The notes beneath the pieces were generated by a model, which was not told the DNA's origin, made no database searches, and saw only the letters and a list, made by a program, of their open reading frames with translations. A DNA stretch of 32,000 nt from Synechococcales cyanobacterium (lineage in GTDB: Bacteria > Cyanobacteriota > Cyanobacteriia > Leptolyngbyales > Leptolyngbyaceae): contig JAYVUU010000133.1 in NCBI GenBank assembly GCA_043787635.1, positions 25,575-57,574 on the forward strand, given 5' to 3'. This document shows positions 4,470-20,440 of the stretch, piece after piece (the first letter of the stretch is position 1; the number at the start of each line of letters is the position of its first letter). Made by a program: the position numbers and the translations under genes.

Positions 4470-4622
4470 GCGCTGCTGATTGGTGCGATGGATGATTTTT
4501 GTGGTGATTGGAAAATGATCGAGTCTGTGTCTTTTTTGGTTCAGATAAGATGAGAAATGTTAGGGTTACGGTACCAATTTGAGTTTTTTTCACAAATTCT
4601 TGAATTTAGACTAAGGAAACCT

Positions 4623-5897
4623 ATGCTAATTGAATTTACAGTTGGAAATTATCGATCGTTCAAAGAACCCGTCACTCTAAGCATGGTTGCAACAAGGCTT
4701 GTTGCAGACTCTAAAAACAAAGAGATAGACGACAACAATATTTTTAAAATCGACAAAAATATCAGCCTTCTAAAGAGTGCTGCAATTTATGGTGCTAATG
4801 CTAGTGGAAAAAGTAACATTGCATTAGCACTACAATTCATGAAATCTTTCATGTTAAATTCTTCTCGCGAAACTCAAAGTACAGACGAGATTGCGGTGGA
4901 GCCATTTCTTCTGAGCACTGAAACCGAAAATGAACCGTCTTTATTTGAGATAGTATTTTTTTTCAATGGTCAAAGATACCGCTACGGATTTGAAGCAACA
5001 ACAAAACAAATAGTTTCTGAATGGCTTTACTACGTTCCTAAAACAAAGGAGACTGTTCTATTCAATCGCGATTTGACAGCTATTAAATCAAGTAAAGTAT
5101 TTGGGGCCAATGGAATAGAAAAAATAACAAGGCGAAATGCACTGTTCTTATCTGTCTCTGCCCAGTTTAATGTTGGGATCGCTGAGAAAATCTTAGCTTT
5201 CATAAAAAAAAGCATAAATTTGATTTCTGGATTAGACGAGTCTTACTTCGCCTACAGCTTCGGTTGTATTGCTGAGGGACCGCACCAAAATGAAATTCTG
5301 AACTTTATTAAAAATCTTGATTTAGGAATTAATAATATCAGAGTGTCACAATCAGAAATAACAATGGATAATTTACCCCAGGAGTTGCCAGAGAAGGTTA
5401 GACAAATGATTGTAGATCGAGGCGATGGAACGGCTATATCTGTTAGGACTTCTCACTGCAAGTTTTCTCCAGATGGAACCCATACCTCCATCGTTGATTT
5501 TGAATTATCAGAGCACGAATCAGAGGGTACGCAGAAGATTTTTGCCTTAGCAGGTCCGATTATAAATACTCTAAAAACAGGAGATACCTTAATTGTTGAC
5601 GAGCTAGATGCAAAGTTACACCCTCTGCTTAGTCTTGCAATCATTAAGCTATTTAATTCTAGTACAAGTAATCCTAATAATGCACAATTGATATTTATGA
5701 CGCATGATACAAATCTATTGAGTAACAAAATCTTTCGTCGTGATCAGATTTGGTTTACCGAGAAAAACCGTTACGGTGCAACGGCTCTGTACTCCTTAGC
5801 AGAATACAATATTCGTAGTGATGCTTCTTTTGAAAGTGATTATATCAAAGGAAAATATGGTGCAGTTCCTTACATTGGTGATCTTCAGTTCATCTAA
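4623..5897 (+). CDS. AAA_21/ABC-like ATPase of the AbiLi/RloA type (defence-associated)
   Basis: I place the start at ATG 4623 because AAGGA lies 8 nt upstream; the ORF-track start at 4557 is probably too early. It begins MLIEFTVGNYRSFKE, then has Walker A YGANASGKSN, Walker B TLIVDELDAKLHP, H-loop LIFMTHDTNLL and a C-terminal KGKYGAVPYIG. The gene is AT-rich. Confidence 0.85.
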   Translation: MLIEFTVGNYRSFKEPVTLSMVATRLVADSKNKEIDDNNIFKIDKNISLLKSAAIYGANASGKSNIALALQFMKSFMLNSSRETQSTDEIAVEPFLLSTETENEPSLFEIVFFFNGQRYRYGFEATTKQIVSEWLYYVPKTKETVLFNRDLTAIKSSKVFGANGIEKITRRNALFLSVSAQFNVGIAEKILAFIKKSINLISGLDESYFAYSFGCIAEGPHQNEILNFIKNLDLGINNIRVSQSEITMDNLPQELPEKVRQMIVDRGDGTAISVRTSHCKFSPDGTHTSIVDFELSEHESEGTQKIFALAGPIINTLKTGDTLIVDELDAKLHPLLSLAIIKLFNSSTSNPNNAQLIFMTHDTNLLSNKIFRRDQIWFTEKNRYGATALYSLAEYNIRSDASFESDYIKGKYGAVPYIGDLQFI

Positions 5898-5902
5898 ATT
5901 CT

Positions 5903-6499
5903 ATGGCTAAACGATCGGTTAATGCAAAAGGGTATTCAGATAGAAAATTAAATACTAGAGAAGTAAAGGAAACATTTCTCATTGTCTGCGAAGGAACTAA
6001 AACTGAGCCAAGTTACTTTCGGCGTTTTCGAGTTCCAAAAGAAGTTCTCGCAATAGAAGGTCTTGGGGAAAATCCTACAAGGGTCGTTGAACGTGCAATC
6101 ACCCGTGCGAAGGAAGAGGAATTTGATCAAGTTTGGTGCGTATTCGATCGGGATGATTTTCCCGTTCCAGATATTAGCAAAGCTTTTGAACTAGCTAAAA
6201 AGCATAAGATCGAAATTGCTTATTCCAATGAATCATTTGAGCTTTGGTATATTTTACATTTTGAATTTCTAAATACTGGAATTTCTCGTAAAGACTATAG
6301 TAAAAAGCTCTCCGATTTAACAGGAAAATCCTATGCTAAAAATAGTCGCGATATGTACGATGATTTATTGAATTTGCAACCGATCGCAATTAAAAATGCC
6401 GATCGGCTTCTTGAGGAATACCCAAACCACAATCCCGTAACAGATAACCCATCCACAACAGTTCATCATTTGGTAAAGCAACTAAACCGATTCATTTAG
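5903..6499 (+). CDS. RloB-like (AbiLii-type) protein, Toprim-like predicted nuclease
   Basis: It starts 5 nt after the ATPase stop. FLIVCEGTKTEPSYF (the conserved CEG glutamate), WCVFDRDDF (DxD) and AYSNESFELWYILHF are the RloB family hallmarks. Confidence 0.8.
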   Translation: MAKRSVNAKGYSDRKLNTREVKETFLIVCEGTKTEPSYFRRFRVPKEVLAIEGLGENPTRVVERAITRAKEEEFDQVWCVFDRDDFPVPDISKAFELAKKHKIEIAYSNESFELWYILHFEFLNTGISRKDYSKKLSDLTGKSYAKNSRDMYDDLLNLQPIAIKNADRLLEEYPNHNPVTDNPSTTVHHLVKQLNRFI

Positions 6500-16186: not shown

Positions 16187-16564
16187 ATGGACCCGATTAC
16201 TTTGGCAACGATCGCGGCAACACTTATTTTGACGAAGGCGATCGAAAAGGTCGGTGAGAAGATTGGGGAGCGGGGAATTAAGGAGGGCGGAAAGCTGGTA
16301 GATGTGTTGCGGCGGAAGGCTCCCGATACGGTGAAACGGTTGGAGGCGGTGGCTGACCCAAATGTGATTGATGCAGAACTGATTGAGGAAGTGCGGAAGG
16401 TGGCGGCGGTAGAACCGGAAGTGCAGGCGGCTGTGACTGCGACGGCTAATGCGATTCAACAACAGTTTGGTGGCGTAACTAATCAGGCTCAACTGGCAGA
16501 GAAGATTGGGATGGTTTTTCAAGGGGGGTATAACCCGGTCACGATTGACAACTTTAATTTTTGA
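16187..16564 (+). CDS. 125-aa helical module with a hydrophobic N-terminal helix and a Gly/Asn/Gln-rich tail; in frame with the downstream NB-ARC gene
   Basis: I take the ATG at 16187 (MDPITLATIAATLILTKAIEK...) as the start; the ORF-track start at 16112 is probably too early. The middle is charged and helical. The tail reads QQQFGGVTNQAQLAEKIGMVFQGGYNPVTIDNFNF. It ends at TGA 16562-16564, in the same frame as 16604-18505. Confidence 0.6.
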   Translation: MDPITLATIAATLILTKAIEKVGEKIGERGIKEGGKLVDVLRRKAPDTVKRLEAVADPNVIDAELIEEVRKVAAVEPEVQAAVTATANAIQQQFGGVTNQAQLAEKIGMVFQGGYNPVTIDNFNF

Positions 16565-16603
16565 CTGAAGCCGTCGATCGGTGCTGCGACAAAGTTAAGC
16601 ATC

Positions 16604-18505
16604 TTGTACGATATTCCGGTTGGGTTGGGTTCTAAGACGTTTGTGGGTCGCGATCGGGCGATGGGGGAGCTGTGTGAGTTGTTGGAGTCGTCGTCGCGGG
16701 TGGCGATCGTGGCGGCTTCGGGAATGGGCGGTGTGGGGAAGACGGAGTTGGCAGCGCAATATGCTAAGAACTCGGAGGCGGAGGGGCGCTATGGGGCGGG
16801 AATTTGGTGGCTGGATGCACGATCGGCGGTGGTGGTGGGGCTTTTGGATCGGGCAAGGCGGATGGGCATTCAGGTGAATGATCAGATTGTGGATGAGGTG
16901 GAGCGGGTTCAGGATTGCTATGGGCAATGGTTGCGAGGGTTGCCTGGTGAGGCGTTGGTGGTGTTTGACAATGTGGAGGATTGGGAGGCGGTGAGGCGGT
17001 TTTTTCCCCGTGATGGTCGGGTGCGGGTGTTGGTGACGATGCGGGAAGACCGATCGGAGAAGGGGGTGCAGCCGTTGCGGTTGGGGGTGTTGTTGCCGTT
17101 GGATGGGTTTCGGTTGTTGGGGGAGGTGAGTGGGGCGATCGATCGGATTACGGTTGATCAATTAGAGGCGGAGGCGTTGTGTGAGGATTTGGGCTATTTG
17201 CCGTTGGCGATCGAGTTGGTGGGTGGGCTGTTGAAGTTGGAGCCGGATTGGTCTGTTGGGCGGGTGCGAGGTGCGTTGACGCGGGAGTTGAAATCGGGTG
17301 CGTTGTCACCTGTGAATGCGGCGATCGAGTTGAGTTGGGTGCAGTTGAGCAATGCGGAACGGCAGTTGTTGGGGATGGTGGCGACGTTTGGGATGGGGGC
17401 GGTGGTGTGGGAGTGGGTGGAGGCGGTGGTAATGAGGAGTGAGGTTCAGGTTAAACCACGGGGACGGATTGGGCGATTTCTGGGACGATCGCCGAGAGCG
17501 GTTCAACAATGGTGTTTTTTATTGGATGATTCGGGTTTAGTTGCGGCGCGGCGGCGGTTGGTGGCGTTGAATTTGTTGGGGAGATCGGGTGAGAATTTGT
17601 ATGGGTTACATCCGTTGGTTCGATCGTTTGTCCGGGGAAAAATGACGACGGAGATTGCGCCGGAGGATGCCATTGGGCGGGCGTTTGCTCAGGTGATGGT
17701 GGCGAAGGCAAGCACGATTCAGCCGACGGTGGTTGTTGCTGAACGGGAATGGGTGGCGCTGGCTGTCCCGCATCTTTTGGAGGTGATGGCAGAGTGGACG
17801 AGAGTATTGGATGAAACAGATAAGACTTGGTGCGGGACTGGACTTGCGAGATTTTATGTGAGCTTGAGTCTTTGGACTGAAGCGGAACGATGTTATGAAT
17901 CGGCGTTGGAAATCAGACGATCGGAATTAGGCGATCGTCATCCCGATACCGCAACGAGTCTGAATAATTTGGCATATTTGTACAAATCAATGGGTGAGTA
18001 CGATCGGGCATTGCCATTGTATGAATCGGCGTTGGAAATCTATCGATCGGAATTAGGCGATCGTCATCCTGATACCGCAACGAGTCTGAATAATTTGGCA
18101 TATTTGTACTCATCAATGGGTCAGTACGATCGGGCATTGCCATTGTATGAATCGGCGTTGGAAATCAGTCGATCGGAATTAGGCGATCGTCATCCCGATA
18201 CCGCAACGAGTCTGAATAATTTGGCAGCTTTGTACTCATCAATGGGTCAGTACGATCGGGCATTGCCATTGTATGAATCGGCGTTGGAAATCAGGCGATC
18301 GGAATTAGGCGATCGTCATCCCTCTACCGCAACGAGTCTGAATAATTTGGCATATTTGTACAAATCAATGGGTCAGTACGATCGGGCCTTGCCATTGTAT
18401 GAATCGGCTGTAGGTATTCTTGAAGACGTTTTAGGACCAGAGCATCCGAATACAAAAGTAATGCAAGGGAATTTACGATTCTTACGGGAGGCGATGGCAA
18501 ATTGA
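16604..18505 (+). CDS. STAND NTPase: NB-ARC domain + winged helix + TPR (TPR_10/12, kinesin-light-chain type) array, with no N-terminal effector domain of its own
   Basis: It has the FVGRD lead-in (16640-16654), Walker A GMGGVGKT (16721-16744), Walker B LVVFDNVED, RVLVTMRE, the GLPL-like LGYLPLAIELVGG, LHPLVRSF, then 42-aa TPR units. Only a TTG (16604) or CTG (16565) start is available upstream of the lead-in. The first ATG is at 16661. Confidence 0.85.
   Translation: MYDIPVGLGSKTFVGRDRAMGELCELLESSSRVAIVAASGMGGVGKTELAAQYAKNSEAEGRYGAGIWWLDARSAVVVGLLDRARRMGIQVNDQIVDEVERVQDCYGQWLRGLPGEALVVFDNVEDWEAVRRFFPRDGRVRVLVTMREDRSEKGVQPLRLGVLLPLDGFRLLGEVSGAIDRITVDQLEAEALCEDLGYLPLAIELVGGLLKLEPDWSVGRVRGALTRELKSGALSPVNAAIELSWVQLSNAERQLLGMVATFGMGAVVWEWVEAVVMRSEVQVKPRGRIGRFLGRSPRAVQQWCFLLDDSGLVAARRRLVALNLLGRSGENLYGLHPLVRSFVRGKMTTEIAPEDAIGRAFAQVMVAKASTIQPTVVVAEREWVALAVPHLLEVMAEWTRVLDETDKTWCGTGLARFYVSLSLWTEAERCYESALEIRRSELGDRHPDTATSLNNLAYLYKSMGEYDRALPLYESALEIYRSELGDRHPDTATSLNNLAYLYSSMGQYDRALPLYESALEISRSELGDRHPDTATSLNNLAALYSSMGQYDRALPLYESALEIRRSELGDRHPSTATSLNNLAYLYKSMGQYDRALPLYESAVGILEDVLGPEHPNTKVMQGNLRFLREAMAN
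17894..18397 (+). repeat. Four near-identical 126-bp tandem units encoding 42-aa TPR repeats (YESALEI.RSELGDRHP.TATSLNNLA.LY.SMG.YDRALPL)
   Basis: Unit starts are at 17894, 18020, 18146 and 18272, so the period is exactly 126. A diverged fifth unit starts at 18398. The array is in frame inside the NB-ARC/TPR CDS. Confidence 0.95.
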
Positions 18506-19126: not shown

Positions 19127-20440
19127 ATGTTCAACAAAATTCGTACCCTAACCCAACGGTTTTTTCGTAAATCCAGCACCCTCAATCGACAATCTCTCAA
19201 TGTCCCAAGTTTGATAGTGATCGTCTTCGTGGATATTTTTATCCTCGCAAACGTCTTTTTTGGACTGAATGACATTAGCAACTGGCATCTCAGCCCCGCT
19301 CAAGCCTATCCCTGCTACAGCCAATGGCAAACCTACCGGGAATCGACTGATCCCAGCAAAGACTACGCCATAGTCCGTCAATCGATCGTCTCCTCTGATT
19401 CAAGCGTAAATTATGGGAGAGCATCCAACCGAACAGAAGCCCCGATCGTAGGCAACTCCACCAGCATTCGCGACCAGTATCAACGCAATCAAATCAATCA
19501 TATCGGGCAAATCTCAGCCCAATGTCTCGACTCCGGAAGCCTACAAGATGCACTACAGAACCCCGAAAACCGGAAAACCGTAGAATCGATCGACAGCAAA
19601 CTCGGAAAAATCACCCAACTCGAACAGACAAACCGCAACATCCGCGCCCAATACGATTCCACCCTGCTCGAAAAAGTTGCAGGTCAACCCCGCAGCCAAT
19701 CCATCAACACAATTAGCGCCGAACAAGCCAAACAAAAAACCGACACCAACAGCGCCACAATTACCCAACTTAAACAGGAAATCACCGAACTCAAACAAAC
19801 CCTCCTCGCCCAGCCCGTCGTCCAAACGCTACTGGTCTATTTAAAAAATCCCGCACCCTTTGAAACGATCGCCGCTCAATATCGCCACGCCTCCTTCTGG
19901 TACCCAAGCATTCAACTAGGTTTCCAAACCTTATTTCTATTGCCCTTAATCCTGACCTCCTACGCCATTCATCGGTTTGCCCTACGCAAAAACTATGGAC
20001 TCGTTGCGCTAATCACTTGGCACCTATTGATCATTGCGACCATTCCAGCATTGTTAAAAGTATTTGAATTTCTACAAGTCGGCGTACTCTTCCAATGGAT
20101 AGCTGACGCGATCGGAACCATCTTCGGCAGCCTGTTATTTTTGGTTTCCTACGCTCAAATCATAATCATTCCATTAGTCGGATTTGGATTAATTAAACTA
20201 ATCCAACGCCTGAGTAAACGCAGCACCAACGCCCAAACCCAAGCCGCCGATCGGATTGCCCAATCCCGCTGTCTACGCTGCGCCAAAAAAATTGGACCCC
20301 ACGATGCCCACTGCGCCCACTGCGGCTATCAGCAATATGCAGAATGTCCCAACTGCCACAGCATGACCCACAAACAAATGCCCCACTGCACCCACTGCGG
20401 ATCACCCACACAATTCAATCCAGAATTACCAAACAATTAA
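19127..20440 (+). CDS. Multi-pass membrane protein with a Q/T/N-rich coiled-coil region and a C-terminal double zinc-ribbon
   Basis: 437 aa. It has an N-terminal TM helix (VPSLIVIVFVDIFILANVFFGL), a polar helical region of about 170 aa, and three or four TM helices. The tail is CLRCAKKIGPHDAHCAHCG...CPNCHSMTHKQMPHCTHCG, which gives four CxxC pairs. I recognise no family. Confidence 0.6.
   Translation: MFNKIRTLTQRFFRKSSTLNRQSLNVPSLIVIVFVDIFILANVFFGLNDISNWHLSPAQAYPCYSQWQTYRESTDPSKDYAIVRQSIVSSDSSVNYGRASNRTEAPIVGNSTSIRDQYQRNQINHIGQISAQCLDSGSLQDALQNPENRKTVESIDSKLGKITQLEQTNRNIRAQYDSTLLEKVAGQPRSQSINTISAEQAKQKTDTNSATITQLKQEITELKQTLLAQPVVQTLLVYLKNPAPFETIAAQYRHASFWYPSIQLGFQTLFLLPLILTSYAIHRFALRKNYGLVALITWHLLIIATIPALLKVFEFLQVGVLFQWIADAIGTIFGSLLFLVSYAQIIIIPLVGFGLIKLIQRLSKRSTNAQTQAADRIAQSRCLRCAKKIGPHDAHCAHCGYQQYAECPNCHSMTHKQMPHCTHCGSPTQFNPELPNN

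Follow-up and report, generated by a model that had tools for sequence, protein, structure and literature searches.

Does a stop codon that parts two collinear stretches of one reading frame separate two genes, or does it lie within one? This question is raised by a locus of a Synechococcales cyanobacterium (Leptolyngbyaceae; GenBank assembly GCA_043787635.1, contig JAYVUU010000133.1, positions 25,575 to 57,574), which we analyzed as a window of 32,000 nucleotides (nt) whose own coordinates are used throughout. A module open reading frame (ORF) of 125 amino acids (aa) runs from the ATG at 16187 to the TGA at 16562-16564 (+), and behind it come another 646 codons without a stop in that frame (16565 to the TGA at 18503-18505, +), which encode a sensor of the NOD-like receptor (NLR) type with NB-ARC and TPR domains. 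We found this arrangement, together with a conserved nucleotide element 3' of the stop, in 37 distinct loci, and on comparative grounds we consider programmed readthrough of the UGA to be its probable explanation. The locus is best read as a Bell/BASS-type effector-NLR cell-death system in which a single frame yields two products.

An open frame across a TGA-C stop

Translation confirmed what an earlier note, made from this sequence alone, had described at the junction, namely, that both ORFs share one frame, that TGA 16562-16564 is the sole stop between them, and that 13 sense codons (LKPSIGAATKLSI) then run without a break into the NLR lead-in and its nucleotide-binding motif (YDIPVGLGSKTFVGRD...GMGGVGKT). 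The base 3' of the module stop is C, and the resulting TGA-C (16562..16565, +), the context that the note had pointed out and the one that we read as recoded, turned out to be shared by 36 of the 37 loci. TGA otherwise serves as an ordinary stop in this genome, where it terminates 6 of the 25 ORFs of the window, the NLR ORF included. The note was also right about initiation: the earliest in-frame start-type codon after the stop is a TTG at 16604 with no Shine-Dalgarno sequence 5' of it (the preceding sequence is GCGACAAAGTTAAGCATC), and the first in-frame ATG, at 16661, lies downstream of FVGRD. Public annotation begins the NLR at this ATG, giving a protein of 614 aa. As the note had further stated, there is no copy of the module tail motif at the NLR N terminus in the window.

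The post-stop frame (16565..18505, +) comprises, by translation and Pfam, a linker, the FVGRD lead-in, NB-ARC, and a TPR array, and it ends in TGA-T. Pfam assigned NB-ARC and TPR_12/TPR_10 to this ORF, placing the NB-ARC NTPase domain at 16658..17239 (+; PF00931, E 7.9e-14, residues 32-225 of the post-stop ORF) and the TPR sensor array of near-identical 42-aa repeats at 17822..18475 (+; TPR_12, E 3.6e-88; TPR_10, E 1.1e-67), with the Walker A sequence GMGGVGKT at 16721-16744 (+). The ORF therefore has both the NB-ARC with Walker A and the C-terminal repeat sensor by which an NB-ARC/TPR STAND NTPase is recognized. The repeat unit reads ALEIxRSELGDRHPDTATSLNNLAxLYxSMGxYDRALPLYES and occurs in near-identical copies at about 17900-18400 (+); such high internal conservation of the TPR repeats matches that described for rapidly diversifying NLR sensors.

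The module (16187..16561, +) belongs to a family of short proteins. A search of 5.8 billion proteins returned 94 clusters 50-100% identical to it, cyanobacterial wherever a source was named and 81-204 aa in length, with none of the 94 fused to a long protein; an exhaustive profile search gave 290 representatives, nearly all of them short as well, the exceptions being 909 aa and 364 aa. The N terminus, MDPIT, is near-invariant (M1, D2, P3, I4, and T5 each at least 90% conserved in the family alignment) and the first helix is hydrophobic (window N-terminal sequence, MDPITLATIAATLIL). AlphaFold2, given the family alignment, predicted five helices (residues 3-15, 19-44, 46-53, 63-75, and 77-93) at a predicted local distance difference test score (pLDDT) of 78.7, while tail residues 114-125 fell below a pLDDT of 50, the tail being disordered and beta-prone. 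Judged from the sequences, the free 125-aa module is clearly a real product.

The alignment divides the family protein into a conserved helical body of about 98 residues (about aa 1-98 in the window) and a C-terminal tail of about 25 residues that comes in discrete classes: that of the window, ...AEKIGxVxQGGYNPxxIxKFEx, and three others, ...QGGNNTFGDINI, ...KIGVVNLGxVxxQTNNIxL, and ...NINFGKAANVGxVLNQTNxF. Different tail classes occur on bodies that are 75% identical, and tails and bodies have been recombined among loci. The several tail classes on one constant body, together with the duplication of this type of motif in classical pairs (L036 and L045; see below), mark the window tail motif QAQLAEKIGMVFQGGYNPVTIDNFNF (16484..16561, +) as a candidate amyloid-signaling (BASS-like) motif. 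In one locus (L021, 6001-6468), the module has 155 aa and ends, ahead of a TGA junction, in a tail enlarged into tandem repeats of the TQNNIE type.

Pfam, NCBIfam, and PADLOC had no match for the 125-aa module, and the Pfam EAD/EACC models, among the families with which the earlier note had proposed to compare it, did not match it at E values up to 1. A profile search of the PDB sequences with the module returned nothing, and Foldseek with the module model returned nothing from the PDB at E <1; Rx-CC, NRG1 CC-R, and BAK appeared only at E values of 2.6-4.8.

The junction and its RNA element in 37 loci

Genomic contexts of module genes were drawn from 25 species-representative genomes, at least 11 metagenome contigs, and 10 loci from single-protein look-ups (one of them, L040, a duplicate). 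In 37 distinct loci, the module stop is followed at distance 0, and in the same frame without a stop, by a sensor protein; the recurrence of one arrangement in 37 distinct loci makes the observation more than chance. Across these loci, the stop, the frame, a nucleotide element, and the covariation of a hairpin within it are conserved, and the sensor has neither a conserved start codon nor a copy of the motif. The stop is TGA-C in 36 loci and TAG-T in 1 (L019). It is followed by CTG (21 loci), CTA (9 loci), CTC or CCA (2 loci each), CCG or CAG (1 locus each), and, in the TAG locus, TTC, and the last sense codon before it is variable (TTT, ATT, TTA, CTT, GTT, CTA, CGT, ATA, or TTC). The named assemblies belong to Alkalinema, Nodosilinea, Leptolyngbya, Kaiparowitsia, Phormidesmis, Coleofasciculaceae, Leptolyngbyaceae, and Synechococcales.

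An abutting, collinear STAND NTPase follows the junction in 35 of the 37 loci. It is mostly NB-ARC-TPR, with NACHT in L010 and nSTAND5 in L019, and the remaining two loci (L006 and L042) have GUN4 in its place. These varied partners indicate that a cassette of module, stop, and junction has been placed before unrelated sensors, in frame every time. The first in-frame ATG, GTG, or TTG lies 10-63 codons after the stop at a position that is not conserved, often past FVGR, and in many loci the first ATG is the Met within the Walker A sequence GMGGVGKT; gene callers accordingly begin these NLRs 30-163 nt after the stop. None of the 37 sensors carries a copy of the tail motif. We then compared the 10 codons before FVGR, which lie upstream of most possible starts: in three sequence groups, differences at the first, second, and third codon positions of the module frame numbered 53/71/150, 125/120/209, and 22/6/28, thus concentrating at third positions. 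The sole indel in the junction is of 3 nt, one codon (L015). Third-position bias and a one-codon indel are the signature of translation entering from upstream.

Several loci deserve mention in their own right. The only TAG-T junction (L019, 6382-6384), with its nSTAND5 partner, is either an exception against which the readthrough model can be tested or a decaying copy. The sensors of L004, L013, L016, L020, and L022, all from metagenome-assembled genomes (MAGs), are cut short by stops or frameshifts, with post-stop ORFs of 215-295 aa, and in L022 the ORF continues in another frame. A protein with the porphyrin-binding GUN4 domain, an unexpected type of sensor, is the partner in three loci (L006, 6382-7107; L042, 747-1307; L045, 3409-4155), behind a TGA junction in the first two and in a classical pair with a duplicated motif in the third. 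Two modules (L008 and L033) are orphans without a partner; that of Leptolyngbya sp. PCC 6406 (L008, 6001-6378) ends in TGA-C and has neither the junction element nor a sensor downstream. When the linker and the NLR N terminus were used as a protein query, only 5 short fragments were returned, and two DNA-pattern scans of viral contigs and a tblastn search of plasmids returned nothing.

The element 3' of the stop is conserved at the nucleotide level, which goes beyond what could be seen from a single sequence. It spans 42 nt in the window (16565..16606, +), where it also encodes the linker LKPSIGAATKLSIL. The consensus, which begins two T residues ahead of the stop and ends at about +42, reads TT TGA CTG GAG TCG TCG GGA GGG GCA CCG ACA AAG TTA AGC ACC CC, and the window variant, common to L007, L015, L018, L026, and L046, is CTG AAG CCG TCG ATC GGT GCT GCG ACA AAG TTA AGC ATC. 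Third codon positions within the element are as informative as first positions, at about 1.3 bits, compared to 0.65 bits (third) and 1.8 bits (first) in the most conserved module block (TKATEKVGEKLGE) and to 0.1-0.6 bits at third positions in the flanks of the element. Such conservation of third positions is not the product of selection on a peptide. Each locus has one copy of the element, always at the junction, and no further copy was found in 25 loci or in the window, within 6 kb on either side, thus ruling out cassette arrays. Rfam has no family for the junction of the window or for that of L011.

Within the element, a hairpin (S1) starts 8 nt after the stop. In the window (16573..16590, +), GUCG at 16573-16576 pairs with CGAC at 16587-16590 around a 10-nt loop, and in most loci the stem is GUCGG/CCGAC. 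Its second pair is UA in 22 loci, GC in 9, CG in 1, and GU or UG in 2, and it is unpaired in 3; none of 500 shuffles reached the observed covariation or the observed percentage paired, and RNAalifold predicted S1 independently. The stem is GGCAG/CUGCC in L025, and a different one of 6 bp, GUCUGU/ACAGAC, occupies this place in L009. Covariation affects the first positions of codons (Ser/Thr, Ala/Pro, and Pro/Ala), and it is explained by pairing and not by any obvious constraint on the peptide. Since the G-C variants sit in loci whose nearest module relatives have U-A, the change in S1 is not a single inherited event.

A second, hypothetical helix (S2) could join GGUGCU at 16580-16585 to AGCAUC at 16598-16603 (16580..16603, +), as suggested by complementarity between the loop and the downstream sequence; a G-run in the loop facing a downstream C-run is compatible with most loci. 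Combined, S1 and S2 would make up a pseudoknot of the H type whose third loop is A rich, a structure that is unproven and that we hold to be considerably less probable than readthrough itself. Self and cross duplexes of S2 differ little in energy (-6.8 versus -6.2 kcal/mol).

Strong-stop relatives and known effector-sensor systems

Six relatives end the module in TAA or TAG (L023, L031, L034, L035, L036, and L045). All six are without the junction element, and in all six the sensor lies in a free frame, has its own ATG, and carries a copy of the module tail at its N terminus. Thus, the module tail and the sensor N terminus read KRAEKIGAYAEQGDITITTL and KRAEKIGAYAEQGDIRIEKL in L036, KLADKIGVIVQPGG and KIADKIGILVERGG in L045, where the sensor is the GUN4 protein, and NQNIAAPGSTMHLTYTQTINF and NQTIAKPGSTVNQTIHQTI in L023; the motif duplicated in L036 and L045 is of the AEKIG...QGG type found in the window tail. 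This layout is exactly the published one of a Bell/BASS effector and a BASS-NLR (10.1101/2020.01.06.895854). In every locus examined, the sensor has either its own start and its own motif or neither of them plus an in-frame TGA-C and the element. As the sensors of the TGA class lack both start and motif, they can obtain the motif only by translation that continues from the module. Both layouts occur on closely related modules and with the same type of partner (GUN4 in L042 and L045), showing that they interconvert in evolution.

One protein (P0099, 909 aa) joins a homologous module, a DKIGTQIINNIQL segment with a DKIG-type motif, and a NACHT NTPase without interruption. Its linker differs from that of the junction loci and it has no junction element; its unbroken existence indicates that the predicted fusion architecture is viable.

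Gene pairs of Bell-BASS and BASS-NLR have been described in filamentous bacteria, where Bell is occasionally an N-terminal domain of the NLR (Dyrka et al. 2020, bioRxiv 10.1101/2020.01.06.895854). In the Bab/Agp antiphage system, abortive infection is carried out by a Bell-type domain once amyloid templating has occurred (Ibarlosa et al. 2024, bioRxiv 10.1101/2024.11.07.622273), and the templated effector is proposed, by analogy with HET-S, to attack the membrane; Bell-type folds are also reported to diverge strongly (10.1101/2024.11.07.622273). The loci studied here resemble both systems in several respects: a small helical protein, about 100 aa in size, whose first helix is hydrophobic and whose residue 2 is acidic (MDPIT, compared to the published "MEPIS" region), a short C-terminal G/N/Q-rich motif, an abutting collinear STAND NTPase with TPR repeats, and restriction to filamentous cyanobacteria. 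Module relatives (L023, L031, L034-L036, and L045) even have the canonical duplicated motif, so that the earlier note's view of a resemblance to HeLo/Bell and amyloid-motif schemes without a clean fit holds for the window, while these relatives do fit. In contrast, the junction sensor has no motif and no start codon, its ORF shares one frame with that of the module and is parted from it only by the conserved UGA-C and the nucleotide element, and homology of the module to Bell or Babybell is not detectable by sequence or fold. Because the motif is missing from the NLR and because homology of the helical domain to Bell is not demonstrated, the locus is best described as a new architectural variant of the Bell/BASS-NLR amyloid-signaling systems and not as a plain member. 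Neither 10.1101/2020.01.06.895854 nor 10.1101/2024.11.07.622273 mentions stop codons or readthrough, and full-text literature searches found no publication in which readthrough or an in-frame stop is connected with Bell/BASS systems or with NLR systems of bacteria.

The predicted readthrough product would resemble all-in-one NLRs with an N-terminal Bell, HeLo, or CC-type domain, of which P0099 is an unbroken example on a homologous module. Those proteins, however, lack an internal stop and do not require a templating motif, whereas here most translation would end before the NLR and supply a pool of free effector. The EAD adaptor systems of bacterial conflict systems (EAD1-EAD11 in Pfam), reportedly described by Kaur et al. 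in 2021, likewise combine a constant effector module with interchangeable short adaptors that couple it to STAND NTPases. The window protein differs in having no EAD/EACC match, and its coupling would be a cotranslational fusion instead of a homotypic adaptor pair. A protein of 177 aa on a 725-nt ENA contig (P0009) has a module 88% identical to that of the window in which EAD9 (Pfam, E 9e-8) replaces the tail, indicating that a Death-like adaptor can also serve to couple this effector body.

Readthrough and rival explanations

Programmed readthrough is known from viruses, namely, at the murine leukemia virus (MuLV) gag-pol UAG, with a pseudoknot 8 nt downstream, and in alphaviruses and coltiviruses, with UGA-C and a downstream stem-loop; in a bacterial host, UGA readthrough yields the A1 protein of phage Qbeta. 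The junction loci share with the viral cases a leaky UGA-C, an 8-nt spacer before a conserved structured element, and a stop that is kept and not lost, and they would share two products with a common N terminus at a fixed ratio. They differ from them in being a chromosomal bacterial gene family and in a structure that is small and partly supported. Three features expected of readthrough are present: a conserved leaky stop that is never a sense codon, an open frame of coding type without an initiation signal, and a conserved 3' element at a spacing that suits the entry channel of the ribosome. Of the stops in Escherichia coli, TGA leaks most and is decoded chiefly as Trp, and readthrough of up to 14% under some conditions has been cited from earlier work (PMC11126739). 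It appears reasonable to apply the leakiness of UGA-C in E. coli to a cyanobacterial locus.

From the conserved features we infer the following course of events. Translation would begin at ATG 16187 and in most cases end at UGA 16562, releasing a free 125-aa protein whose helical body is probably membrane targeting and whose short tail is prone to amyloid formation. A minority of ribosomes would decode the weak UGA-C, most likely as Trp via a near-cognate tRNA, and the 42-nt element with its hairpin 8 nt downstream would aid this decoding. Passing through a linker of Ser/Gly/Pro type into NB-ARC-TPR, these ribosomes would produce a protein of about 772 aa comprising module, tail, linker, and NLR, with IGMVFQGGYNPVTIDNFNF-[W/C/R]-LKPSIGAATK as the predicted peptide spanning the stop. 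Once the TPR sensor is triggered, the NB-ARC domains would oligomerize, thereby clustering the fused tails and nucleating an amyloid fold, which would template the tails of the abundant free module and switch on a membrane-damaging activity in which the N-terminal helix attacks the membrane. Such toxicity would presumably serve cell death in defense.

Readthrough would then replace the second, NLR-borne copy of the motif found in classical two-gene systems. It would also hard-wire a low sensor-to-effector ratio, with the effector in excess, and with one motif copy the motifs of sensor and effector could never drift apart. Where paralogues in a single genome carry different tails, as do L015 and L018 of MAG GFS_7557, parallel systems would be kept insulated from one another. 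This amyloid-templating logic is plausible; in a variant of the model, the stop would mainly throttle a dangerous fusion and the free module would act as a modulator. We lean toward the further proposal that UGA-C and the approximately 42-nt structured RNA form a portable recoding cassette, yielding a free effector and a rare effector-NLR fusion in which one amyloid motif serves both sides and stoichiometry is set by termination efficiency.

A number of observations weigh against readthrough. To our knowledge, structured stimulators of plain stop codon readthrough are established for eukaryotic viruses and not for bacteria. The case made here is one of comparative anatomy. The thermodynamic stability of the junction and its hairpin is no different from that of shuffled sequence, S1 is short (4-5 bp) with essentially one covarying pair, and a covariation test gave no support for S2. 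Searches by sequence and by fold gave no kinship of the module to Bell or Babybell. Furthermore, the TAG-T of L019 is considered to terminate strongly in E. coli, and the shortened sensors, found in MAGs, may mean that some copies are decaying or are assembly errors in repeat-rich genes.

These points have to be set against those that speak about other explanations. The window alone shows one in-frame stop in an otherwise continuous frame, and an uninterrupted module-NACHT fusion does exist (P0099), which is what a fused module-NLR gene broken by one nonsense change, the first option of the earlier note, or an assembly error would look like. This explanation is refuted: the identical stop and context recur in another 36 independent loci, among isolates as well as MAGs and across many genera, the linker of P0099 differs and lacks the element, and the 94 module clusters include no fusion; nor does any close relative have the sense codon at the TGA position that the note had suggested looking for. 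Another option of the note, a true two-gene pair, survives in part. According to it, ribosomes would stop at the UGA, the NLR would be made by termination-reinitiation or by noncanonical initiation in the junction, and the element would be a coupling or standby site. It is right in that the stop is always present and a free 125-aa protein is clearly made, and it agrees with the tight coupling or overlap typical of Bell and NLR genes (10.1101/2020.01.06.895854), with a Shine-Dalgarno-like GGAGGGG in the loop of the common element variant, and with the CTG that follows the stop in 21 of the 37 loci. It does not account for the sensor, in which no start codon is conserved. In 16 loci the stop is followed by CTA, CTC, CCA, CCG, CAG, or TTC, the next ATG, GTG, or TTG often falls within or past conserved NLR motifs, the window variant of the loop (AUCGGUGCUG) is not Shine-Dalgarno-like, and no start codon lies 5-10 nt after the loop. 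Moreover, coupling needs no open frame from the stop, yet all 37 loci keep one, and the classical relatives, which initiate independently, have an ATG and no element. We therefore regard two cistrons as unlikely, and the remaining option of the note, a two-product readthrough locus, as the one that the comparative evidence favors.

Less likely again is an element of DNA or RNA unrelated to decoding, such as a recombination joint that shuffles the module cassette or a site of RNA processing or stability, with in-frame continuity as a by-product. Conservation of all three codon positions would be expected of it, as would its place where a shuffled cassette with recombined tails and bodies meets unrelated partners (NB-ARC, NACHT, nSTAND5, and GUN4), and an inverted repeat spaced by 8 nt looks like the core site of a recombinase. 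The covariation, however, keeps complementarity and not sequence, pointing to a folded single strand and not to a protein-bound duplex, and each locus has a single copy, without silent cassette arrays within 6 kb on either side. Such an element would impose no frame, and it would leave unexplained why start and motif are missing exactly where the element and TGA-C occur and why substitutions of coding type are found upstream of any start codon. Selenocysteine at the UGA, with the hairpin as a bacterial selenocysteine insertion sequence (SECIS), is highly improbable, since L019 keeps the element with a TAG, which tRNA-Sec cannot read; an in-frame UGA with a conserved hairpin within about 10 nt is indeed the general layout of bacterial selenoprotein genes, but here the UGA falls in a flexible linker that joins an amyloid-type motif to an NTPase and has no redox context, the homologues found all stop there and none has Cys, and the junction has no Rfam match. 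We give as little credence to translational bypassing, of which phage T4 gene 60 is the known case and in which ribosomes would move from the last sense codon to a matching downstream codon, leaving the junction as an untranslated coding gap. The stop does follow directly on the take-off codon with a hairpin nearby, and in the window TTT both precedes the stop and encodes the F of FVGRD. Yet neither the last sense codon nor a matching landing codon is conserved, a gap that needs no open or in-frame state always has one, and the 10 codons before FVGR, past the 42-nt element, evolve in a coding-type pattern.

We thus return to readthrough as the probable explanation and to what it would mean. 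In amyloid-signaling immunity, sensor and effector need matching prion-like motifs at the right ratio, and readthrough would be a new answer to this need and a third architecture beside two-gene pairs and all-in-one NLRs. We know of hardly any documented case of conserved, functional stop codon readthrough in cellular bacterial genes. If the reading is true, the level of readthrough, and hence the sensitivity of immunity, could track the state of the translation machinery under stress or infection. Annotation would be systematically wrong for this class, with gene callers shortening the NLRs to arbitrary internal starts, and surveys that seek the motif on the NLR side will miss it.

As to the remainder of the window, a scan for promoters and terminators found no more sites than in shuffled sequence, and the neighbors of the locus are housekeeping genes. 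Directly 3' of the NLR lies an ORF of 437 aa (19127-20440, +) with hydrophobic segments and a C-terminal Cys/His-rich stretch (CLRCAKKIGPHDAHCAHCGYQQYAECPNCHSMTHKQMPHCTHCG), for which Pfam and PADLOC had no match. A second defense locus, an abortive-infection pair of the AbiL type, is located 10 kb upstream of the NLR (4557-5897 and 5903-6499, both +), and PADLOC identified its two genes as AbiLi (E 9.5e-105) and AbiLii (E 2.1e-30).

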